From IMG/VR virus record IMGVR_UViG_3300045988_164158: a DNA stretch of 51,657 nucleotides. The stretch is one strand, 5' to 3'. This DNA comes from a virus. This document shows positions 1 to 51,657 of the stretch, in pieces (positions within the stretch are counted from its first letter, which is position 1; the number at the start of each line of letters is the position of its first letter). Made by a program: the position numbers and the translations under genes. The notes beneath the pieces are model-generated. The model was given only the letters and a program-made list of their open reading frames with translations. It did no database searches and was not told the DNA's origin.

Positions 1-81
1 AACCGGAGCAACCGGAGCAACCGGAGCAACCGGAGCAACCGGAGCAACCGGAGCAACCGGAGCAACCGGAGCAACCGGAGC
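1..81. repeat. Tandem 9-bp repeat (AACCGGAGC) x about 9 at left window end, identical to the array at the right end
   Basis: Direct reading. On the minus strand it encodes (APV)n in frame with flanking coding sequence. Confidence 0.9.
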
Positions 82-372
82 AGAGAGAGTCTGTAGTTCA
101 GCTTTAACACGATTGTACTCTACATCACTGATACCACGTCGACGCTGCCAAACACCGCCGGAAGTCATTTTATGATTTGAACTGTGGATTCTTTCATCCC
201 ACGGCAAACCTTCTTTATCCAAAGTCGTAGCTTCACATTCTTCATCAGTTTCTTCACAATGTACCAGAGCAACCGGAGCTATTTTCTCAACAGAATTAAC
301 CGGTTCCTCAGTTAAAACTTTTGCAATTTTTAACAGCTCATTGACTGTCAATTCTTCAAGTGTAATTTTCAT
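1..372 (-). CDS. N-terminal part of a repeat-containing hypothetical protein that continues beyond position 1 and resumes at the right window end (51301..51657). First gene of the minus-strand replication operon.
   Basis: ATG at 370-372 (minus) with AAGGA Shine-Dalgarno 8 nt upstream. Open frame MKITLEELTV...GLPWDERIHSSNHKMTSGGVWQRRRG...LSAPV(APV)n runs into the terminal repeat. The frame is continuous with the right-end segment. Confidence 0.6.
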   Translation of the reverse strand, partial: MKITLEELTVNELLKIAKVLTEEPVNSVEKIAPVALVHCEETDEECEATTLDKEGLPWDERIHSSNHKMTSGGVWQRRRGISDVEYNRVKAELQTLSAPVAPVAPVAPVAPVAPVAPVAPVAPV

Positions 373-387
373 TTCATTTCCTTATAG

Positions 388-422
388 TTAATGTTGACAT
401 TTAACATTAACTGTTTTACATT
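388..422 (+). promoter_or_regulatory. Divergent promoter region with an operator-like 8-bp inverted repeat overlapping the -35
   Basis: Inverted repeat TTAATGTT(388-395)/AACATTAA(403-410) flanks the TTGACA (394-399). A 17-nt spacer is followed by the -10-like TACATT (417-422) upstream of the 457 gene. The palindrome reads identically on the minus strand, toward the replication operon. Confidence 0.4.
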
Positions 423-456: not shown

Positions 457-1053
457 ATGTCAAAAATTGTTATAAAAAGTGAAGATTTATATAGATTTTC
501 AAAGCTTGTGGATAACGAAGAATACATAAGAATAGAAATTAAAGACCGTAAAGCTTTTATGATTGCAAGCAACGAGATTATAGCCTGTGTAAAATATTTA
601 AAAGGTTCTTTCGGTACTGACGAAATTATATATATTAAAGTTGATGAAAATTTCAGAGAGAGAATGAAATTTGATTCAAAATTTTCAACATCTGTAATAT
701 TAGAAACTGTACCGGAATTTGGCCTTGCAACATTAAAAACAGATAAAGATATTTCCGAATCACTCATATATCTTGATGAAACTTTTTATGATGAATGGCG
801 TTCTTGGTTTGTCGAATCATCAGAGAATAAAGGGTTTATGTTTTGGGATACTTATCAAATAATTAAATTGTTTGAATGTAGTCCTTCGGGACAAATAACA
901 TTTCCGGCAGTTATAAACAGCTCTAGACCTGTTTTATTAAGAGATATTACCGATTCAGAGTGGGTTGGAGTATTTATACCTACCGCAAAAGATGATAAGA
1001 AAAGTAAACCCGCTGAATTGCCGGAGTGGTTAAAAGATGCCGATAAAGCTTAG
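457..1053 (+). CDS. hypothetical protein, first gene of the plus-strand helicase operon
   Basis: ORF with AGAGGA Shine-Dalgarno 10 nt upstream of the ATG at 457. Its end overlaps the helicase start. No recognisable motif. Confidence 0.45.
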   Translation: MSKIVIKSEDLYRFSKLVDNEEYIRIEIKDRKAFMIASNEIIACVKYLKGSFGTDEIIYIKVDENFRERMKFDSKFSTSVILETVPEFGLATLKTDKDISESLIYLDETFYDEWRSWFVESSENKGFMFWDTYQIIKLFECSPSGQITFPAVINSSRPVLLRDITDSEWVGVFIPTAKDDKKSKPAELPEWLKDADKA

Positions 1054-2683
1054 AGATTATCAGCAGGAGGCTGTCAATAAAATTTATGACAGTTGGAATC
1101 AAGGGAATCGAAATGTATCTTTAGTGATGTGTACGGGATTAGGTAAATCTGTCTGTATGTCTTCTATAGCCCTTAATTTTGATAACCAACACAAACCTGT
1201 TGCAGTTGTTGCACATCGTAACGAGCTTGTCAGTCAAATGTCCTGTCATTTAGCACGTGTGGGTCTTTATCATCGGATAATAGCTCCAAGAGCTGTTGTC
1301 GGGCAAATTTCAAGAAAACATAAAATTGAATTTGGAAAATCTTTTATTAATCCATCGGCATTATCGGCAGTTGTTGGTGTTGATACATTAATGGCACGAG
1401 CCGATAGTTTAAAAAATTGGGCGCAGCAAATAGCTTTGTGGGAGGTTGACGAACAACATCACATTACTCGCGGCAATAAGTGGGGTAAAGCTGTTGAAAT
1501 GTTTGTCAATGCCCGTGGGCTTGGTGTAACTGCAACACCGAATCGAGCTGACGGTCAAGGATTAGGTCGATGGGTCGATGGTGTTATGGACGACATGGTT
1601 TTAGGTCCTTCAATGCGTTGGGCTATTGAAAATAATTTTCTCGCAGATTACGAAATTGTCTGCCCTAAATCAGATTTAAATGTTGAAGACAGCCCGTTGT
1701 CTGCGAATGGCGATTGGTCTAGTCAAACTTTGCGTAAAGCTGCTAAAAAATCACGAATCATCGGGGATGTAGTAACAAATTATATTAAATATGCTTTCGG
1801 TCGAAAAGCTATCGTTTTTGCTACTGACGTTGAAACAGCTGAAGAAATTTCAAGAGATTTTAACGCTCACAATATAAGAGCGGTTTCACTCAACGGTAAA
1901 TCGTTACCGGCATTTAGAGAACAAAGTTTAGATAATTTTCGAGATGATAAATTACAGGTACTTGTCAATGTAGATTTGTTTGATGAAGGATTTGACGTTC
2001 CGAGTTGTGATGTTTGTATTATGGCCCGTCCCACTGCTTCACTTGGTAAATTTTTACAACAAGTAGGTCGTGTATTGCGTCCTGCACCTAATAAAACAGC
2101 TCTTATTATCGACCATGTTAGCAACGTTATTCGACATGGTTTGCCGGATATGCCCAGAGAATGGTCCTTAGAACGGCGACAAAAAAAAGCTAAATTAACT
2201 AAAGACCCGGACGAAATAGAACTTACGGTTTGTAAAAAATGTCTTAAACCTTATGAAAAATTTAGAACTCAATGCCCTTATTGCGGGGCTGAGCTACCTG
2301 TACCAGAATCAAAATCTCGTACAATTGAAATAGTTGCTGGTGATTTGGTGTTATTAGATAAAGCAACCTTACAGCGCTTGCGGCAAAATGCAATGTTAGA
2401 AAGTCCGGGAAATATAGCCGCAAGAGTCGCAAAAGCCGCTGGACCAATAGCTGGTAAAGCCGCTGCAAATCGTCAAATGGAAAAGATAGAAGCTCAGAAT
2501 GAATTAAAAGATACTATTGCTCAATGGGCAGCTATCGAACGTGAAAAAGGATTTAACGACAGAGAAATTTATCGGCGTTTCTATTTGTCGTTAGGTATGG
2601 ATGTGTTAACCGCTTTAAACGGTACTAGAACACGTCAAGATTATTTAACAACAGCTGAAAGAATTAAAGGATGGTATGAATGA
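1037..2683 (+). CDS. superfamily 2 DEAD/DEAH-type helicase with a C-terminal zinc ribbon
   Basis: Motifs seen: LRDYQ (Q motif), CTGLGKS (Walker A/motif I), EVDEQHH (motif II variant), VTATP (motif III) and QVGRVLRP (motif VI). A C-terminal CxxC...CxxC (CKKCL...CPYCG) is also present. Confidence 0.85.
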   Translation: MPIKLRDYQQEAVNKIYDSWNQGNRNVSLVMCTGLGKSVCMSSIALNFDNQHKPVAVVAHRNELVSQMSCHLARVGLYHRIIAPRAVVGQISRKHKIEFGKSFINPSALSAVVGVDTLMARADSLKNWAQQIALWEVDEQHHITRGNKWGKAVEMFVNARGLGVTATPNRADGQGLGRWVDGVMDDMVLGPSMRWAIENNFLADYEIVCPKSDLNVEDSPLSANGDWSSQTLRKAAKKSRIIGDVVTNYIKYAFGRKAIVFATDVETAEEISRDFNAHNIRAVSLNGKSLPAFREQSLDNFRDDKLQVLVNVDLFDEGFDVPSCDVCIMARPTASLGKFLQQVGRVLRPAPNKTALIIDHVSNVIRHGLPDMPREWSLERRQKKAKLTKDPDEIELTVCKKCLKPYEKFRTQCPYCGAELPVPESKSRTIEIVAGDLVLLDKATLQRLRQNAMLESPGNIAARVAKAAGPIAGKAAANRQMEKIEAQNELKDTIAQWAAIEREKGFNDREIYRRFYLSLGMDVLTALNGTRTRQDYLTTAERIKGWYE

Positions 2684-4977: not shown

Positions 4978-7236
4978 ATGACAGATTTTAACCTTACAAC
5001 AGCTTATATTACCTCTCTTACCGGTAGTCCTGATACATCTTGTTTTTGGCTGCTGATAGACGAACATAATAAAAAAAACCCGCCGGTTATTATTTGCGAT
5101 TCGTTTGACAACTGTAATCAAATTTTGAAACTTTATAATGATTCTGGTTATGGTGTTTTTATAGCTATTAACTCTATTCGTTCCGGCTGTCCGAGAACAC
5201 TTGAAAATGTTGAACATGTTCGAGCACAAGTAGTTGATATTGACAACCCGTTGCAAATGCAAGACAGTTATAACAGAGCTATACAATCGGCTTGCCCACC
5301 GCATTTTGCCGTTCAAACATCGCCCGGTCACATTCATCTTTATTGGTTAATAGAACCATATGTAGGAAATGATTTTTTCAAAATTCAACAACAAAAACTT
5401 AATCAGCTTTATAATGGGGATATGAATGTTACTGACGCTACAAGAGTCATGCGCGTTCCCGGGTTTAATCATTGTAAAAGCGTACCGCAACTTGTAACAT
5501 GTTGGGGGATTCATAGCAATCCACGATATACAACGGAACAGATGCAAAATTATCTCGCGGATGTTAACATTGTTGAACATAATTTTGGGCTTCGTAAAAA
5601 ACTTGGTAACGAAATGTTACAGGCACCAAATTTTGAATTGTTGTTGAAAGCTTTGTATGATATTGACCCAAATGAACTTTTTCGAGATGAATGGTTGTCT
5701 GTTAGTGCATCGTTCAAACAAGCCGGGTGGTCGTTAACAAACGAGAATAACCTTTATACCGAATGGCTTAAATGGTGTTCAAATTATAAAAACAATAATC
5801 CAAAAGAAAACAAAACACTTTGGAACTCATTGAAAGAAACTCAAATCGGTTGGAAAAGTTTGCTCAGAAAAACTGAAAATATTCAACCTGTTGTTTATTT
5901 TGGTGAACGAGCTGAAGAAGACGAAAAAGAAATTGAAGTTTTAGGCAATGTGCTCGATGAACGCGGTAAAAAAATATGGTTTAAAAATTGTTATTTTGTC
6001 GAAAGTGAAGGGCGTATTTTTACTTCCAGTGGTCGATTTATGAATCAAATACAATTCAATGGGCGATACGGCGGCAAGGAATTTACAATTAAAAGCGCCG
6101 GAACAAAGCTTACAGACAATCCATGGAAAGCCGCTTTAAGCAGTGTTGACTGGTCCATACCAAAAGTCGACCATTGTCGTTTTTTACCTCAAGAACCTAC
6201 TTTTTCAATCATTCATGATGATTTAGGTCGCAAGGGACTAAATACATATATTCCAGCAAAGATAAAATCTATCGAAGGCGATGTTAGTAAATGGAAGGAT
6301 TATTTGTCAAAAGTATTTAATACACCAGAGGATGTTAAAATATTTGAAGATTACATTGCTCATTGTATAAAATTTCCCGGTGATAAAATTCCTTGGTCTG
6401 TTTTATTACAGTCAACCAAAGGTGTCGGTAAGCAAATGATAGGCGACGTGCTTAAACATTCAATTGGTGAAATATATACTTACCAGCCTGATGCTGAAGA
6501 ACTTGTTAGCGGTGTTAGTCAGTTTAACGGTTGGATGCGTAATAAACTTATGATATTAGTCGATGAAGTGCGTGTCGGTGACCGCAATGAACTTATGAAC
6601 GGGCTTAAAACTATCATCACTGACCGAAGAATTGCTGTAGAATCTAAAGGTGTCGATCAGCAAATGGAAGATAACGTCGCTAATTGGATATTTTTTAGCA
6701 ACTTCAAAGATGCTTTTCCAATCGACGAAAACGAGCGACGTTATTGTATATTTTACAGTAAATTACAATCAGCCTTGCAATTAGAAGAAGTTGGGATGAA
6801 TAAAAATTACTTCGATTCAATGTATAACTGGCTTGAATGTGAACATGGATTTGAAAAAATTGCATGGTATTATCTAAATTACCCGATTGAAAAAGGTTCC
6901 TTGTCGCATAGGGCACCACATACTTCAAGTTACGAAGAAGTGTTGAGAATCGGTAGAAGCCCCTTGCGTGTTATTCTTGACGATAAAATCGAAGCTGAAG
7001 AACGCGGATTTCGTGGTGGATATGTCAGTTTTGTGATGTTTCAAAAAGCCGTTTTAGACAGTTCTATGCGTACTAAACCTGCCGAGCATACATTGAAAGC
7101 TATTCTTGAAGGAAGGGGTTATCACGAGCTTGGACGGACGATAAAACCTATCCCGGGTGAAGATTTAACACATCCGAGTTTGATATTCGGTTTAAAGGGC
7201 AAAAGTATTGATGGATATGAAGATGCGCAAGGATAA
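4978..7236 (+). CDS. bifunctional primase-polymerase (PrimPol) / SF3 (D5/P4-alpha-like) helicase
   Basis: N-terminal PrimPol motifs VVDIDN, SPGHIHLYW and RVMRVPGFNHCK. C-terminal Walker A STKGVGKQ with downstream SF3 helicase architecture. Confidence 0.8.
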   Translation: MTDFNLTTAYITSLTGSPDTSCFWLLIDEHNKKNPPVIICDSFDNCNQILKLYNDSGYGVFIAINSIRSGCPRTLENVEHVRAQVVDIDNPLQMQDSYNRAIQSACPPHFAVQTSPGHIHLYWLIEPYVGNDFFKIQQQKLNQLYNGDMNVTDATRVMRVPGFNHCKSVPQLVTCWGIHSNPRYTTEQMQNYLADVNIVEHNFGLRKKLGNEMLQAPNFELLLKALYDIDPNELFRDEWLSVSASFKQAGWSLTNENNLYTEWLKWCSNYKNNNPKENKTLWNSLKETQIGWKSLLRKTENIQPVVYFGERAEEDEKEIEVLGNVLDERGKKIWFKNCYFVESEGRIFTSSGRFMNQIQFNGRYGGKEFTIKSAGTKLTDNPWKAALSSVDWSIPKVDHCRFLPQEPTFSIIHDDLGRKGLNTYIPAKIKSIEGDVSKWKDYLSKVFNTPEDVKIFEDYIAHCIKFPGDKIPWSVLLQSTKGVGKQMIGDVLKHSIGEIYTYQPDAEELVSGVSQFNGWMRNKLMILVDEVRVGDRNELMNGLKTIITDRRIAVESKGVDQQMEDNVANWIFFSNFKDAFPIDENERRYCIFYSKLQSALQLEEVGMNKNYFDSMYNWLECEHGFEKIAWYYLNYPIEKGSLSHRAPHTSSYEEVLRIGRSPLRVILDDKIEAEERGFRGGYVSFVMFQKAVLDSSMRTKPAEHTLKAILEGRGYHELGRTIKPIPGEDLTHPSLIFGLKGKSIDGYEDAQG

Positions 7237-14090: not shown

Positions 14091-14456
14091 TTACAAAGCT
14101 AGCACCGGGCGAACGTAGTAACCGTAGTCCTTATAGTCCCAGCCCAAACCGCAACTGCTGGAAAAGGTAGAGAGCCACGCGTAGCCGTAATAGTACTCCG
14201 ACGAAGACCAATACCAGTCTCTTTTAAGCGGCTCCCCGCCGGCGCGAATTAACGCTTTGTTTACAGCGTCTAAATTTTCAGCAATCGCCATCCATTCTTC
14301 CTTGCTCGGAATGCCTACTTTGACGGCGTCATACCAATTCATTTGTTTTTGCTCGTCGCGCAATCCCAGCACAATCGCCCGGCCGTTTATTTGGGCGGCG
14401 CGGACGCCGATTGGGCGTCCGTTCTTTTTAACAATCATAACTCTGAATTTTTTCAT
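14091..14456 (-). CDS. DUF1566 (Lcl C-terminal-like) domain protein, paralog A
   Basis: ...DWYWSSSEY..AW..F..G....YVRPV fits the DUF1566 signature. Locally GC-rich DNA. Shares near-identical DNA stretches with the 16006..16371 gene. Confidence 0.45.
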   Translation of the reverse strand: MKKFRVMIVKKNGRPIGVRAAQINGRAIVLGLRDEQKQMNWYDAVKVGIPSKEEWMAIAENLDAVNKALIRAGGEPLKRDWYWSSSEYYYGYAWLSTFSSSCGLGWDYKDYGYYVRPVLAL

Positions 14457-16005: not shown

Positions 16006-16371
16006 TTAAAAATTTACAATTACGCGGACATTATGTCTAAACGGTTTTTCATCAAAATTTAAACCGGATATTCTGTTAAAATCATAATAAAGCGCGTAAT
16101 CGTGCCTGGCTTCCGACGCCGACCAATAACAGTCTCTTTTAAGCGGCTCCCCGCCTGCCTGCTCGCATGCGTCATTGATAGCGTCAAAATTTTCACTAAT
16201 CGCAAACCATTCTTCAATTGACGGGATTGCTTGATATGAAGCGCTAAACCAATTCATCCGCTCCGGCTCATCTTGAAGCGCAAGGGTAATTATCCGGCCG
16301 TTTATTTGGGCGGCACGGACGCCTACCGGTTTGCCGTTTCTTTTAACAATTTCAACTTTAAATTTTGTCAT
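16006..16371 (-). CDS. DUF1566-like domain protein, paralog B
   Basis: ...CYWSASEARHDYALYYDF...VRVIV. DNA stretches (CCGGCCGTTTATTTGGGCGGC.CGGACGCC and TCTCTTTTAAGCGGCTCCCCGCC) are nearly identical to paralog A. Start at MTKFKV with an AAGGGG Shine-Dalgarno. Confidence 0.45.
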   Translation of the reverse strand: MTKFKVEIVKRNGKPVGVRAAQINGRIITLALQDEPERMNWFSASYQAIPSIEEWFAISENFDAINDACEQAGGEPLKRDCYWSASEARHDYALYYDFNRISGLNFDEKPFRHNVRVIVNF

Positions 16372-46570: not shown

Positions 46571-48601
46571 CTATATAATAAGTTTTTGAGCTTCTTGAAT
46601 GTACCAATCGTAATTGATATTATTCCATTTAAAAGTTTCAATATCGTTAACAACTGTGACTTTATATCCGGCCGCTAATCCTGTAACACGTTCCTCGTAT
46701 TTTGATTTATTCTTTGTGCAAACTCTTTCATCCCATTCACCGCCTGTTTCAGCCATGACCCTATTATATTCCGTTTCAGTAATACCATTTCGACGTTTAT
46801 AACAACCTACCGGACCGGCAGGGGGCATAACTTTTGATAAAAATTCCCCATCTGTACTGATATAAAATCTTGTATTTTTTTGGACATGTTTATTACCCCA
46901 AAACAGCTTAGAACCGCCGGTAGCTTTAACTGCGCAACAAAAGTCAAACGGATTGAAGCAACTGCGAATGTATGTTTCAATATCAACACCATCAACCATA
47001 TTTGCAACAGCCGCCCGCGTGCTGACAACGTTTGAAAAGTTTTTATGCCATGCAGCGGGTTGTGATGATGCTATTGATTCGTGATAATCAAGAGCATCAG
47101 GTGTCCAATAGGTACCTTTGAGTTTACATTTTCCATCCGTACCGACGGCGATATAGTTATTAACATCGCGAATATACATTTTGGCATATCTAGCTTCTTC
47201 GAGGTCCAGATGTGTTAATTGTTCCCATCGTTTACAAATCTCTTGTGTCTGTTGATAATAATCTTTGTGAATGTAAAATGTAATACCATCTGTATTGGCT
47301 TGAATAACTTGCAATGTCGGAACATCTGTCAGCCATTCGAGCAACATTGACAACATTAATTGACCGTTGATAGTAATTGTCATGGTAAATTGCGGGTCAT
47401 ACATCACGCTGAATTTGGAGTTTGATTTACCATAAGCACCATTGAGAGCGAGTTTGATAGCGTTGGCTTCCGTGCATTTTTTACCTTTTTCTTTTTGCCA
47501 TTTTTTACGTTCTTTTTTAAGGTCACCGTAAATGCTTGCGAATCTATCTCCCAAATGTTCGGGATGCAAGCCGTTTACAATAGCAATTGACGGATATAGA
47601 CTTGATACGTCAACATCAACAATCCACCAATCGTCTGTAGCTTGTATGCGTTTCTTTTCAACAGAACCGTGAATACCACCAACTCCATAATGATATTCAA
47701 CGCCGTTGACAGTCGCTGTAAGATTTTCAAACACACCTTTGGTTTTAATATTTGTACTTTCTTCGCCAGCTGCATTGATTTCTTCACTTCTCAATACCTG
47801 AGAACACATATAATCGTAGATATGCTTAAATTCAGGCTTTTTTAATTTTACATAAGAAAAAATAATATTTTTAAGTGGTATTTGCGTTCTTGGTGTTTGA
47901 CGCATCTGTCGGTAACCTGTGGAGACATCATAACATACTTCATCACCAAGACGGGATATGATAGTTTGTTCGCCGATTTTTGTATCATTCCAGTTATAAA
48001 CGTCGATACCAAATTGTGATTCAAGCCCTTGTCTAAATTCAACAGCGTGATGCGCATATTCAGCAAATCGCTTAGTTTCCTGTACGTCATGTATGTTATA
48101 AGGGATGAGTAAAGTTTCAATTTGTTCTTTGGTAAGCACAGTTCCATCTTTAATCGGCATGTCTTGAACAAATGGTGCACGCATATTTATTTGTAAAGCT
48201 TTTAATGAAGTAGATTTAGCTTTATTATCAAAATGGTGCATTTTAAACAAATCCACTTGAGGTGCAAAACGGTCAGATGCCCATATAATATGACCGAATT
48301 TACTCTCGGCGTTAATAATGTCCATGGCTTTTGTGTAAAGTTGCTGATAAGTTGCTGAAGGATTATTCCAAAGAAAATGGATTACCGGATAGTCAAAATT
48401 AATATTATTAAAACCTATCATAGGTGTCTGAGTTATTGAAAGTTCTTTAAAAAATGCTAAAAGTTGCTTACGGTCATCACGATATTCAGAAATTTCCCAA
48501 ACTGAACGAACATTAGAATTTAACATTTCCATTGATAATGTAAAACAGTTCGGGAAAGTTTCAATATCGTAGACTATAGCGTTAGTAAAGTTAAGAGACA
48601 T
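46571..48601 (-). CDS. family B DNA polymerase
   Basis: Exo I YDIETFPN. Motif A VDVSSLYPSIAI. Motif B KLALNGAYGK. Motif C QANTDGITFY. Start at MSLNFT with a GGTGG Shine-Dalgarno. Confidence 0.8.
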   Translation of the reverse strand: MSLNFTNAIVYDIETFPNCFTLSMEMLNSNVRSVWEISEYRDDRKQLLAFFKELSITQTPMIGFNNINFDYPVIHFLWNNPSATYQQLYTKAMDIINAESKFGHIIWASDRFAPQVDLFKMHHFDNKAKSTSLKALQINMRAPFVQDMPIKDGTVLTKEQIETLLIPYNIHDVQETKRFAEYAHHAVEFRQGLESQFGIDVYNWNDTKIGEQTIISRLGDEVCYDVSTGYRQMRQTPRTQIPLKNIIFSYVKLKKPEFKHIYDYMCSQVLRSEEINAAGEESTNIKTKGVFENLTATVNGVEYHYGVGGIHGSVEKKRIQATDDWWIVDVDVSSLYPSIAIVNGLHPEHLGDRFASIYGDLKKERKKWQKEKGKKCTEANAIKLALNGAYGKSNSKFSVMYDPQFTMTITINGQLMLSMLLEWLTDVPTLQVIQANTDGITFYIHKDYYQQTQEICKRWEQLTHLDLEEARYAKMYIRDVNNYIAVGTDGKCKLKGTYWTPDALDYHESIASSQPAAWHKNFSNVVSTRAAVANMVDGVDIETYIRSCFNPFDFCCAVKATGGSKLFWGNKHVQKNTRFYISTDGEFLSKVMPPAGPVGCYKRRNGITETEYNRVMAETGGEWDERVCTKNKSKYEERVTGLAAGYKVTVVNDIETFKWNNINYDWYIQEAQKLII

Positions 48602-48760
48602 TTTACCACCACCCAAAAACACGCCCATAAATTGGTAAAATCACGGATTGTACAAATATCCAAGCTATAAAACCGTGGGTAGTTGTACAGTGACTGACAG
48701 CTTGAAGATAAGCGACGAAAAACCAGAAAATAGCGGTGTAAATAACAATCCCATCCATTT

Positions 48761-49138: not shown

Positions 49139-49379
49139 TTTCTAAACCTTCTAACATTCGTGGACGTACTTGAGATTTATAAATGCTATCGGCGTTTATA
49201 GCAATTTCATCACTTGTTAAAATTTTCAAATCCTCAAGCATTGCAATTAATGTCATAAGAATTACAAAATTTCGTAATCCCATATCTCTTAAATCACTAA
49301 AATTTTCTGGTAACATAAAAACCTCCGTTAATTTATTAAATGAGCAGACTTTGACCGGTCTGCCAGCGGTTATCAACAT
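49116..49379 (-). CDS. hypothetical protein
   Basis: ORF. TAATG overlap with the upstream stop. Confidence 0.35.
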   Translation of the reverse strand: MLITAGRPVKVCSFNKLTEVFMLPENFSDLRDMGLRNFVILMTLIAMLEDLKILTSDEIAINADSIYKSQVRPRMLEGLENEQRKMD

Positions 49380-50224
49380 TAATACGGTATTCTATCATTA
49401 ACCAACGTAGAAAACGGTTGACCCGATGCAGGCTGAGCAGTCGGCACACCTTGCGCATTGTTAACAAAATCATAAGCAGGGGCGGGCATAGGAGCCTGCG
49501 GCATTACAGGAGCCTGCGGCATTACAGGAGCCTGCGGCATTACAGGAGCCTGCGGCATTGGCATCTGTGCTGTGCCAGGTGCTGAACTGATAGGTGTTGC
49601 CGATGCTCCGACAGGTACAGCAGACACCTGACCGCCAAACAATTTCATCGGGTCGGCATTTACCGAACCTTTAATCGCCTGACCGTATCCAACAATTTCA
49701 TAAGCGTTTGGATTCCAATAAATACCCCCGTCTTTTTCAGTATGTACGGTCAAATTGACGCTTGTAACAACATAATCGCCGGTTTTAACTTCCCCTGCTT
49801 CAACTTTACGGTAAGCTCCGTTTTCAAACTTGTAAGTCGAAGGACAGAAAGCCGATGTACGAATTTTGATGACATAACAACCTTTGTAACCGTCACGGGT
49901 ATTGTACGGTACATTTGACCCTTGCGGACAAGCAGGGCTGTCACCGTTAATGATTTTCCAAGCAAATCTCGTCATTTCAAGCTGTTCAGGATTTACATTT
50001 GCGTATTGCGGATAGATTTTTGCAACTTCCTGAACAACATAAGGCCAAACATTCTGCATAAATTCAGCTTTAGGAATGGCAAGGTCGATACGATGTTCTT
50101 TGACAGGTTGACCGTTTTTATCCGTTTTAGGCTGTTTGGTATAAAAATCAATCGCCTGTTCAAATTTATTAGGATCGCCGCCGACAATACGACCAGCCGG
50201 CAATTTAAAGCATTCTAACGTCAT
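49379..50224 (-). CDS. DUF2815-like putative ssDNA-binding protein with a Pro-rich (PQAPVM)n repeat linker and C-terminal PAPAYDFVNN...DRIPY tail
   Basis: N-terminal GRIVGGDPNKFEQA...RIDLAIPKAEF resembles the DUF2815 rlsYphlFep...llIPK pattern. Located in a DUF2800/polymerase module. Contains a 21-bp tandem repeat. Confidence 0.4.
   Translation of the reverse strand: MTLECFKLPAGRIVGGDPNKFEQAIDFYTKQPKTDKNGQPVKEHRIDLAIPKAEFMQNVWPYVVQEVAKIYPQYANVNPEQLEMTRFAWKIINGDSPACPQGSNVPYNTRDGYKGCYVIKIRTSAFCPSTYKFENGAYRKVEAGEVKTGDYVVTSVNLTVHTEKDGGIYWNPNAYEIVGYGQAIKGSVNADPMKLFGGQVSAVPVGASATPISSAPGTAQMPMPQAPVMPQAPVMPQAPVMPQAPMPAPAYDFVNNAQGVPTAQPASGQPFSTLVNDRIPY
49485..49565. repeat. 21-bp tandem repeat (GGAGCCTGCGGCATTACAGGA, about 3.7 copies) encoding (PQAPVM)n
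   Basis: Direct reading. Confidence 0.85.
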
Positions 50225-51297
50225 TTCTTTTCTCCAAAATATTTTTCTGCAATTTTAGTTTCATCAACTGCAACAAGTTTCAAACCGTTATCCGGTCTAT
50301 AAGTGCATTCGGCTATAAATTCCTTCGGAACACCGGCTTTTTTAGCCTGTGCAGGTGTCATAAGCTTTTCAACATGAACATCAATACCCGTCATTGCTTT
50401 AATAAATTCAGCATTAATATCTTTATTCCACGTTGTTTGTCCTAAACTCGGAGAGATTGAGTAACCTTTAACACTTTTACCTTCAGACAGTCTGTGTTTT
50501 GCCAAATCCTCATAAGCATCGCAAGATTGTCTTAAGACTTCCTGAGCGCGTTTAAGATTTGTCAGCATCCATGAGAGCCGTTCATTGCTAATTTCGCTGT
50601 CAAAAGCTAATTCAGCAACATCTATGGCATTCATAGCTGCTATTTGTGCCGCGGGGCATTGAGAGAGTGACTGACACTTATAACATTGTGCACCGCTGCA
50701 AACGGTTGAAGAGGGGTTGACAAGTGTTTGTGTTAACTTATCGTACAGCTGCATCAACTCGTTATAATTTATCTGCCACTCTCTTATACACCCTTGCGGA
50801 TGATATGGTCGGGGTTGAAAAATCTTAAACACTATTAGATTCGGGTAATGATTTTCATGTTGTTTACACCATGCGATTGCGTGACTAATCAATGTCCAAT
50901 TCATTTTTGGTTCAACAATCCGCCAACCATATTTCAAATCCGCAATGATTAAAACGTTGTTGTTATATTTAATGCAATCAGCACGTCCGCGAATTTCCCA
51001 ACCGTTTCCAGAGTGAGAAGTATCTGTTTCAACTTCGGCAGAATCTGAACTGATAAATTTGAAATAATTCTGACAATTTTCAACCATTTCATCAGTTATA
51101 AACAAATTGTTCGAAGCCGATTGTCCGATTAATGTTTCAGGATTGATACCGCCTGCAACCTGTTCAGCAAGCCAGTGAACAGCCTTGCCTTCGTCAGTCA
51201 GTTCGGTTGAAGAATCAAAAGGTTGTATGTTACCTAAAGATTTATAACCGTTACAAGCCATAAAACGCGGGAGTTCTGTTGCAGTTAATGATAACAT
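50221..51297 (-). CDS. PD-(D/E)XK nuclease, Cas4/DUF2800-like, with a Cys cluster
   Basis: IADLKYGW (D..K core). CSGAQCYKCQSLSQC Cys cluster. Typical phage replication-module neighbour of DUF2815. Confidence 0.55.
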   Translation of the reverse strand: MLSLTATELPRFMACNGYKSLGNIQPFDSSTELTDEGKAVHWLAEQVAGGINPETLIGQSASNNLFITDEMVENCQNYFKFISSDSAEVETDTSHSGNGWEIRGRADCIKYNNNVLIIADLKYGWRIVEPKMNWTLISHAIAWCKQHENHYPNLIVFKIFQPRPYHPQGCIREWQINYNELMQLYDKLTQTLVNPSSTVCSGAQCYKCQSLSQCPAAQIAAMNAIDVAELAFDSEISNERLSWMLTNLKRAQEVLRQSCDAYEDLAKHRLSEGKSVKGYSISPSLGQTTWNKDINAEFIKAMTGIDVHVEKLMTPAQAKKAGVPKEFIAECTYRPDNGLKLVAVDETKIAEKYFGEKK

Positions 51298-51300
51298 AAA

Positions 51301-51657
51301 TCACAAACCTTTTTTAACCAATTCGTTAATTACATAACTAAGAGCCTGTGCATTACCTCTCAATTCAGCAGCTCCTTGATAAGAAGTCCCATAAGTAGCA
51401 TTAACACCGGCAATCACATTTTGCATGAAATTAGCATCAAGCACTTTCATCTGTAAACCGTTACGTAACTGTTCGAACATTCTGTTGTAAAGAGCTTCCG
51501 GGTCTTCTGCAACAGAAGACGTTGTGGCTTCAACAGGTGCCTGACAAGCGACGGTATTATTAATGAAATCATATGCCGGAGCAACCGGAGCAACCGGAGC
51601 AACCGGAGCAACCGGAGCAACCGGAGCAACCGGAGCAACCGGAGCAACCGGAGCAAC
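51301..51657 (-). CDS. C-terminal part of the repeat-containing protein that starts at 372 (wraps around the window ends)
   Basis: Frame ...(APV)n-APAYDFINNTVACQAPVEATT...VINELVKKGL*, with a TGA at 51301-51303. The repeat is in the same frame as the left-end segment. Confidence 0.6.
   Translation of the reverse strand, partial: VAPVAPVAPVAPVAPVAPVAPVAPVAPAYDFINNTVACQAPVEATTSSVAEDPEALYNRMFEQLRNGLQMKVLDANFMQNVIAGVNATYGTSYQGAAELRGNAQALSYVINELVKKGL
51577..51657. repeat. Tandem 9-bp repeat (AACCGGAGC)n at the right window end
   Basis: Direct reading. Identical unit and phase to 1..81. Confidence 0.9.

Follow-up and report, generated by a model that had tools for sequence, protein, structure and literature searches.

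Why would two proteins encoded close together in a phage genome carry the same short peptide, PAYDF[VI]NN, each time directly after a run of repeats rich in proline, alanine, and valine? The question is raised by virus record IMGVR_UViG_3300045988_164158, a DNA of 51,657 bp and 37% GC, which is treated here in its entirety as the window of analysis and which appears to be an entire phage genome, interrupted in assembly within a tandem repeat. One of the two proteins is encoded across the joined ends of the window and is referred to below as the wrap-around protein, and the other is a 281-residue protein from the same operon. A sequence-only reading of the locus had described them as two adjacent replication proteins, each consisting of a folded N-domain, a flexible linker, and a conserved tip. 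[quoted passage not shown] By analogy with known phage systems, we read PAYDF[VI]NN with middling confidence as a docking peptide common to the SSB and the wrap-around protein, whose receptor would belong to the phage replisome or recombination machinery and may be the DNA polymerase or the groove of the SSB oligonucleotide/oligosaccharide-binding (OB) fold.

The SSB and the motif in its tail

The 281-residue protein (49379..50224, minus strand) matches PHROG 7011, "Gp2.5-like ssDNA binding and annealing protein," with an E-value of 6e-46. Its earlier description as DUF2815-like stands at the level of this PHROG and of the DUF2815/gp2.5 fold and does not stand at the level of Pfam, in which no family, including PF10991 (DUF2815), matched it at E<=0.1; a sequence search of the PDB likewise gave no match. 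The syntenic SSB relatives in phages JH01 and Mulvp2 do match PF10991. In the AlphaFold2 (AF2) model, residues 1-185 form a folded OB-type domain with a predicted local distance difference test score (pLDDT) of ~90, while residues 186-281 are disordered, in agreement with the folded N-domain and disordered Pro-rich linker that had been proposed for this protein. Foldseek matched the model with a probability of 1.00 to the DUF2815 proteins 4klk (E-value 2e-8) and 4jg2, to ORF6 of phage Enc34 (5odl, 3.5e-7; also 5odj and 5odk), and to T7 gp2.5 (1je5, 8.5e-6). Bacterial SSBs reached E-values of only 0.1 or worse against the model, and the canonical bacterial SSB fold was thus not recovered in this comparison. 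The gene order duf2800, gp2.5-like, pol is a conserved module (PMC8093625). It is present here without a separate ssb gene, and the same synteny is found in 12 cultured phages. By its predicted fold and its duf2800-gp2.5-pol context, the 281-residue protein is a T7-type SSB, which is predicted probably to anneal DNA strands as well.

T7-type SSBs are thought to act through short acidic tails. The tail of the SSB considered here is 96 residues long, is composed mostly of P, A, V, Q, G, S, and M, and with three acidic and two basic residues is neutral, lacking the acidic character expected of the group. An acidic C-terminal tail has been given as characteristic of the Enc34 SSB group (PMC5686142). 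Within this tail, the copy APAYDFVNN (49457..49483, minus strand) forms the core of a conserved M-P-x-P-A-Y-D-F-V-x-N-A-x-G sequence. Among the 120 homologues listed, which share 53-95% identity with the SSB, 116 carry [Y]-[DE]-F (in its relaxed form [YFW][DE]F) in the context MPAPAYDFV[NQA]NA, and the other four have HDF or TDF. An alignment of 59 SSB sequences of 52-95% identity shows P247, P249, A250, D252, F253, N256, A257, and G259 to be invariant and M246, Y251, and V254 to be nearly so, with spacers that range from 35 to 83 residues before the motif and from 22 to 69 residues after it. Judged from these alignments, strong purifying selection keeps the SSB motif as a conserved island amid a disordered tail that evolves fast, and the earlier expectation that it would be conserved among homologues was borne out for this family.

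Related forms of the motif occur in the SSB tails of more distant phages, namely PATDFVQNAG in P106B, PAPDFL in Mulvp2 and Scuro, PATDLLV in L020 and L022, and PARDLV in MR14. Since the phages concerned infect Rhizobium, Enterobacter, Acinetobacter, and Pseudomonas, these forms argue for a partner that is either encoded by the phage or universal. A second conserved motif, QPFSTLVNDRIPY (49382..49420, minus strand), ends the protein and is one of two alternative family tips: 41 of the 120 listed homologues end in ...DR[IV]P[YFH] and 73 in sequences like ...PFATTFPxR (e.g., ...TAPFATTFPTR), and the choice of tip is independent of the PAYDF motif. The tip consensus of bacterial SSBs is DDDIPF, which the ...NDRIPY terminus of the phage protein partly resembles. 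Relatives of the SSB were found in genome collections only in L038 and L039, phage-sized contigs in rumen metagenome-assembled genomes (MAGs) labeled Alphaproteobacteria (yak and roe deer), which give a weak hint of habitat and host.

The wrap-around protein and its copy of the motif

The second gene lies on the minus strand and reads from an ATG at 372..370 to position 1 and then from position 51657 to a stop codon at 51303..51301; a simple joining of the ends gives a protein of 242 residues with (APV)8-V-(VAP)... at the junction. Its N-terminal part (1..372) specifies a helix at residues 10-20, an acidic disordered stretch, a conserved module, and the start of the (APV)n linker. From the translation of the joined ends, its C-terminal part (51301..51657) specifies the remainder of (APV)n, the motif copy APAYDFINN, a short linker, and a helical C-domain. 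In the AF2 model, the module (residues 51-96) consists of a β-hairpin and a helix with pLDDT 63-74, and the motif is separated by a 20-residue linker from a four-helix C-domain (residues 155-217, pLDDT 78-90). The order is accordingly helix, module, linker, motif, linker, and helical C-domain, in place of the N-domain, linker, and tip that had been suggested. Nor is the motif a terminal tip in either protein, as it is followed by 28 residues in the SSB and by ~90 in the wrap-around protein. It lies in disordered segments of both, the pLDDT being 42-55 in the SSB tail and 40-50 in the linker of the wrap-around protein.

Each repeat array leads directly into APAYDF[IV]NN, as the sequence-only reading had stated, and these two copies of the motif are the only occurrences in the six-frame translation of the window. 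The wrap-around copy (51556..51582, minus strand) is identical to the SSB copy at 21 of 27 nucleotides, with five synonymous differences and a single Val/Ile change. It is not a fresh DNA copy, because five of its differences from the SSB sequence are synonymous, and these differences are consistent with selection on the motif peptide. At least in this lineage, the comparison of codons indicates that the peptide is kept while the DNA drifts. A closer match is found in L013, in which 28 of 30 nucleotides in the ten shared motif codons are identical between the two genes. Among 120 listed homologues of the wrap-around protein, PAYDF[VIA]NN[AT] is present in ~35, which are the closest ones (at least 62% identity) and have differing flanks. 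The claim that the motif is conserved in the homologues of both proteins therefore holds for the SSB family and not for the wrap-around family at large, in which it is confined to ~35 of the 120 listed.

The conserved module of the wrap-around protein (LDKEGLPWDERIHSSNHK...GVWQRRRGISDVEYNRVKAEL; 85..222, minus strand) has no match in Pfam and is the hallmark of its family. Its pattern (GLPWDERIHS...G-x-W-x-RRRG...) was matched by phmmer in 1837 representative clusters at E<=1e-3 and by tblastn in 30 phage records. The full protein has no match in Pfam, NCBIfam, or the sequences of the PDB, and Foldseek with its model returned nothing at E<1 from the PDB and only uncharacterized phage proteins from BFVD. 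On the evidence of these searches, the protein belongs to a widespread, uncharacterized phage family. In the cultured phages, which infect Rhizobium, Alteromonas, Stenotrophomonas, Escherichia, Vibrio, Burkholderia, Pseudomonas, Enterobacter, and Acinetobacter, the gene slot of the family is constant: it is the first gene, preceding a DUF2800-type nuclease and a gp2.5-like SSB, and is divergent from a helicase.

A version of the module is also present in the DNA polymerase of the window. Residues 608-640 of the polymerase (GCYKRRNGITETEYNRVMAETGGEWDERVCTKN; 46709..46807, minus strand) resemble it in permuted form, with a BLASTP E-value of 3e-6, and a hidden Markov model (HMM) of the module matches the polymerases of all loci that have one, always in the order HMM positions 24-48 and then 1-21. 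The polymerase version reads W/Y-x-RR-x-G-I...EYNRV...AE, followed by WDER[IV].

L005 is a natural variant of the same phage. In its wrap-around gene (L005:1-140), (APV)n runs into APEAPEAPEALYNRMF, with PAYDFINN and 24 further residues lost and three copies of a new 9-bp unit (CCGGAAGCT) present. P0158, a 133-residue protein from a contig of 51,912 bp, is a deletion variant in which ...EKIAPVA is joined to PVAPVAPAYDFINN and the entire module is gone; the deletion apparently arose by recombination of the codons for "IAPVA" (~262..280) with the APV array. In Rhizobium phage P106B, the homologue is split into two overlapping open reading frames (ORFs; L009:6815-7551), with the module and its Gln/Pro linker in P106B_54 and the C-terminal domain in P106B_53, and a tRNA-Leu gene lies between the nuclease and SSB genes. 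An "SYDF" sequence in P106B was considered as a third motif copy and rejected, as alignment with family members places it in the first helix of the C-terminal domain. In Enterobacter phage Mulvp2 (L032:3664-4971), the wrap-around-like protein carries, fused to its N-terminus, an Rv2179c-like 3'-5' exonuclease domain (PF16473, 9e-40).

Several GenBank records label proteins of this kind "RecT" or "RecT-like ssDNA annealing protein" (L010:3782-4744, which is JH01, L027:4800-5468, and L036:4159-4920; of these, only the JH01 protein was scanned against Pfam). Identification as a RecT/Redβ annealase, as implied by the labels in JH01, B8b, Silvanus, and B2, was rejected, as no match to Pfam RecT (PF03837) was found in a scan that covered the protein of this genome, the JH01 "RecT," and five other relatives and that did not include the B2 protein. 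The Silvanus label derives, by the record's own note, from BLAST similarity to phage B8b.

The operon on the minus strand consists, in order, of the wrap-around gene, the DUF2800 nuclease gene, the SSB gene, two small ORFs, and the DNA polymerase gene, and the helicase (1037..2683) is transcribed divergently from it; a primase is encoded at 4978..7236. The nuclease gene (50221..51297) encodes a PD-(D/E)XK (Cas4-like) exonuclease (Pfam PF10926, E=4.9e-25; PHROG 69, exonuclease), and the polymerase gene (46571..48628) encodes a divergent, weakly family-B-like enzyme (PHROG 1252, E=7.5e-178; NCBIfam Pol II palm region, 1.8e-6). The two motif genes are 1.1 kb apart with the nuclease gene between them, and are not adjacent as had been stated. 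Their joint description as replication proteins is sustained for the SSB alone, the wrap-around protein being a member of an uncharacterized family. In the short stretch that separates the wrap-around gene from the divergent helicase operon lies a perfect inverted repeat (387..411) with 9-bp arms, GTTAATGTT and AACATTAAC, separated by 7 nt, which is a candidate operator or origin element. GC skew tracks gene orientation and located no origin.

Elsewhere in the genome, two 121-residue paralogous ORFs (14091..14456 and 16006..16371, minus strand) share long identical peptides (MxKFxVxIVKxNGxPxGVRAAQING...), and two more pairs of ORFs have heptapeptides in common.

Repeat arrays and exchange between linkers

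The linkers that precede the motif are encoded by perfect tandem repeats. As noted earlier from the letters of the sequence, (APV)n derives from a perfect 9-bp repeat, which Tandem Repeats Finder (TRF) detected at both ends of the window (51576..51657 and, continuing, 1..82, minus strand), in each case as 9.1 copies with 100% matches; the genome ends that carry it overlap in phase by up to 75 nt. In the SSB gene, (PQAPVM)n derives from a repeat at 49490..49559 (minus strand; 3.9 copies, 100% matches), which agrees with the three to four copies reported before. The period of this second repeat is 18 bp by TRF rather than 21 bp. The arrays (GCT CCG GTT) are GC-rich islands in a genome of 37% GC and, by this measure, are not explained by base composition.

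Copy number is not fixed. The SSB gene of L001, from another sample, differs from that of the present genome by two substitutions and one 36-bp gap and by nothing else. The gap is exactly two 18-bp units, giving 1.9 vs. 3.9 copies in near-identical genes, as anticipated by the suggestion that linker length varies through slippage. The 9-bp array breaks all of the short-read assemblies examined, and its exact count is resolved in none: contigs L003 and L004 start with 13 and 14 full copies of the unit, a minimum for the array, scaffolds L001 and L002 have N-gaps inside the array, and other contigs break within or just past it. In relatives of ~70% identity the Pro/Ala/Val linkers are degenerate and have no DNA repeat behind them, which marks the perfect arrays as recent expansions. 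Both repeat units are multiples of three and in frame, and replication slippage at the 9-bp and 18-bp repeats would alter linker length without disturbing the reading frame.

Exchange of DNA between the two genes is documented in Alteromonas phage JH01, in which one and the same 118-bp sequence occurs in the wrap-around-like gene (L010:4242-4359) and the gp2.5-like SSB gene (L010:6743-6860) and gives both proteins an identical Pro/Ala-rich segment of 41 residues. In Pseudomonas phage MR14, the wrap-around-like protein and the SSB (L031:4003-4944 and L031:6465-7352) contain the same mini-domain of ~25 residues, "AAGWT..L...GY" ("AAGWT...GY"), with which the SSB tails also end in JH01, PTXU04, D63, BcepB1A, Mulvp2, Scuro, B2, L023, and L024. 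Comparison across 18 genomes shows the wrap-around-like protein to have more 3- to 5-mers in common with the SSB tail from the same genome than with tails from other genomes (permutation p<=1e-4 for all genomes and p<=0.0025 without this genome and JH01), and 6 of the 18 exceed chance when compared with composition-matched shuffles of the tails. General concerted evolution of both linkers was rejected as an explanation, because only 6 of 18 genomes exceed the shuffles and DNA exchange is seen in JH01 only. The linkers are read, from these sequence comparisons, as having matched composition and undergoing occasional exchange, with no general rule.

Docking and its alternatives

Two phage systems offer precedents for shared docking. 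In T7, the gp2.5 tail binds a basic patch on the polymerase, and a "DTDF" peptide of gp4 has been modeled at that site (PMC12339929). The present system resembles T7 in the fold class of the SSB, in the presence of an Asp-Phe element in a disordered tail, and in the occurrence of that element in a second protein, which in T7 is a replisome protein, the helicase-primase gp4, and here is uncharacterized. It differs in that T7 tails are short and strongly acidic and end in a Phe carboxylate, whereas the tail here is 96 residues long, neutral, and built of tandem repeats, with an internal motif and a second tip. In crystals of ORF6 from Enterobacter/Hafnia phage Enc34, the tail enters the concave β-sheet groove of a neighboring SSB, burying 842 Å² (PMC5686142); by residue count, its last ordered residues are ...SDAYD. 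Enc34 ORF6 (DUF2815, PF10991) shares with the present SSB the fold, the context of a DUF2800-type nuclease and a polymerase, and A-Y-D in the tail, but its tail is short and acidic (16 of 29 residues), whereas the SSB here has a neutral tail and no PF10991 match. In the Enc34 locus (L037:3681-6420), ORF3 ends in ...EEEEV, the nuclease ORF5 in ...GAYDDEDEDDDEV, and the SSB ORF6 in ...DAYDEDEDEWDEDEV; ORF3, ORF5, and ORF6, three consecutive proteins of the replication module, thus have common acidic ...(D/E)EV tails, and AYD occurs in two of them, the tail ends of ORF5 and ORF6 being ...AYDDEDEDDDEV and ...AYDEDEDEWDEDEV. The WDERIH module was not found in the first 16 kb of Enc34, and ORF3 was rejected as a homologue of the wrap-around family because neither BLASTP nor PHROGs supported the relationship. 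A further analogue, for cooperativity mediated by a tail, is ICP8 of herpes simplex virus 1 (HSV-1), in which an FNF motif in the disordered tail docks on the neighboring monomer and thereby promotes cooperative DNA binding as well as annealing (PMC12409425). ICP8 is comparable as a viral SSB/annealase whose disordered C-terminal tail holds a tripeptide of aromatic-polar-aromatic type, although neither its fold nor its virus is related and FNF is not known from a second protein. Bacterial SSBs offer a parallel in architecture, with a DNA-binding domain that is folded, a disordered linker rich in Pro, and one or more conserved peptides, and the ...NDRIPY end recalls their tip; they belong to another OB-fold family, and PAYDFVNN is neither C-terminal nor acidic.

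The anatomy of the two proteins, the fold, the disorder, the conservation of the motif, the variation in copy number, and the shared module are established; binding by the motif and the identity of its partner we infer. Several features together suggest a docking peptide: the motif is short, lies in disorder, and stays conserved while its flanks vary, and it contains the Asp-aromatic pair of SSB tips. That two proteins would dock through the same peptide is plausible because both T7 (gp2.5 and gp4) and Enc34 (ORF3, ORF5, and ORF6) have shared tail tips. The SSB motif would then be the functional counterpart of the acid-plus-aromatic tip of gp2.5, in a tail that has lost its acidity and holds the motif between variable spacers, and the tail would link the OB domain, while on DNA, with a receptor site on a protein of phage replication or recombination. 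The likeliest receptors would be the DNA polymerase, a candidate partner of the motif, and the concave OB groove of a neighboring SSB, both of which are known for gp2.5 and Enc34 tails. The wrap-around protein of this clade would have gained the motif as a copy within its own linker of Pro, Ala, and Val and, by occupying the receptor site of the SSB, would compete with the SSB or take over from it. A more elaborate version, in which the module is itself the receptor for the DF motif of SSB tails, appears unlikely. In that version the wrap-around protein is an adaptor that mimics the polymerase and catches SSB tails, its own motif serves as a pseudo-ligand in an autoinhibited or self-associating hand-off switch, and the tails are matched by recurrent exchange of linker repeats.

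A number of observations weigh against docking by both proteins. The tips of gp2.5-type and bacterial SSBs are strongly acidic and depend on a free C-terminal aromatic residue; the motif here is internal and has a single acidic residue, unlike these known tips. The AF2 monomer models show a small bump in confidence at the motif and no confident docking. Windows identical between two proteins in at least 8 of 9 residues arise in 13% of residue-shuffled proteomes of this genome, so that the match within the genome is weak by itself and its weight comes from conservation in homologues. In the wrap-around family, relatives of 40-50% identity have other linker sequences, the close relatives P0151, P0154, and P0156 are without the motif, and among 147 representatives of the wider family PAPAYDFV is found only in P0255. 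The wrap-around gene of L005 lacks the motif although the SSB of that contig is, without any difference, the P0001 form of L001-L008, which is 95% identical to the SSB of this genome. Judged from such sequences, the wrap-around motif is not essential there and may be dispensable. Recent DNA-level exchange between linkers, finally, is seen in only one of the 21 genomes examined, JH01.

The main rival reading, which we consider possible but doubtful, is that the motif is functional in the SSB and its wrap-around copy is a neutral by-product of occasional non-allelic recombination or gene conversion between the Pro/Ala-rich, repeat-laden linker-coding regions, drifting and being lost without harm. 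The 118 bp identical in both genes of JH01 show that such events take place, the phage's own pair of exonuclease and annealase would favor recombination at short homologies, the two copies in L013 match at 28 of 30 nt, the wrap-around copy is patchy in its family, and it is lost in L005, P0151, P0154, and P0156. A neutral copy accords poorly with the five of nine codons that differ synonymously in this genome with the peptide unchanged, with the ~35 representatives that keep the motif as both flanks change, and with its presence as PAPAYDFV in the more distant P0255. A further proposal is that both phage proteins hijack a host protein through the motif, a host partner having been suggested in the sequence-only reading. 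Examples would be a protein that interacts with the host SSB, the sliding clamp, the host's replicative helicase, and its RNA polymerase. This proposal can appeal to the ability of phage SSB tails to mimic host tips and to the resemblance of ...NDRIPY to DDDIPF. It seems improbable nevertheless, as related DF motifs in SSB tails across very different hosts are better suited to a phage-encoded receptor, and the only host clue is the label Alphaproteobacteria on the rumen MAG contigs. The clamp-binding consensus, moreover, is QL[SD]LF, which the motif does not resemble.

The remaining alternative is that the repeats act as DNA, namely as origin iterons within a replication gene, as in lambda O, or are an artifact of assembly, with the likeness of the peptides being incidental. 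The position of the 9-bp array in the first gene, beside a divergent promoter region with the palindrome at 387..411, would suit an origin, and the contig ends do fall inside the array. This explanation is nonetheless highly improbable: the units of both arrays are multiples of three and keep the reading frame, the corresponding linkers of homologues are degenerate in Pro/Ala/Val and have no DNA repeat, the arrays recur independently in contigs from other samples, and the motif is conserved at the level of peptide rather than DNA.

The clade described here departs from the short acidic tails of T7-type SSBs in having a long, neutral, repeat-built tail in which two short peptides are constant, one of them copied into a second protein. 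If PAYDF[VI]NN is a docking peptide, it would provide a handle with which to map the interactions of a module that many phages contain, comprising the uncharacterized protein, the DUF2800 nuclease, the gp2.5-like SSB, and the polymerase, and a role could be assigned to a large family that is mislabeled "RecT" in several GenBank records. It would also offer a natural system in which linker length, set by slippage, tunes a tethered interaction, and it may be of relevance to recombineering with gp2.5-type annealases.

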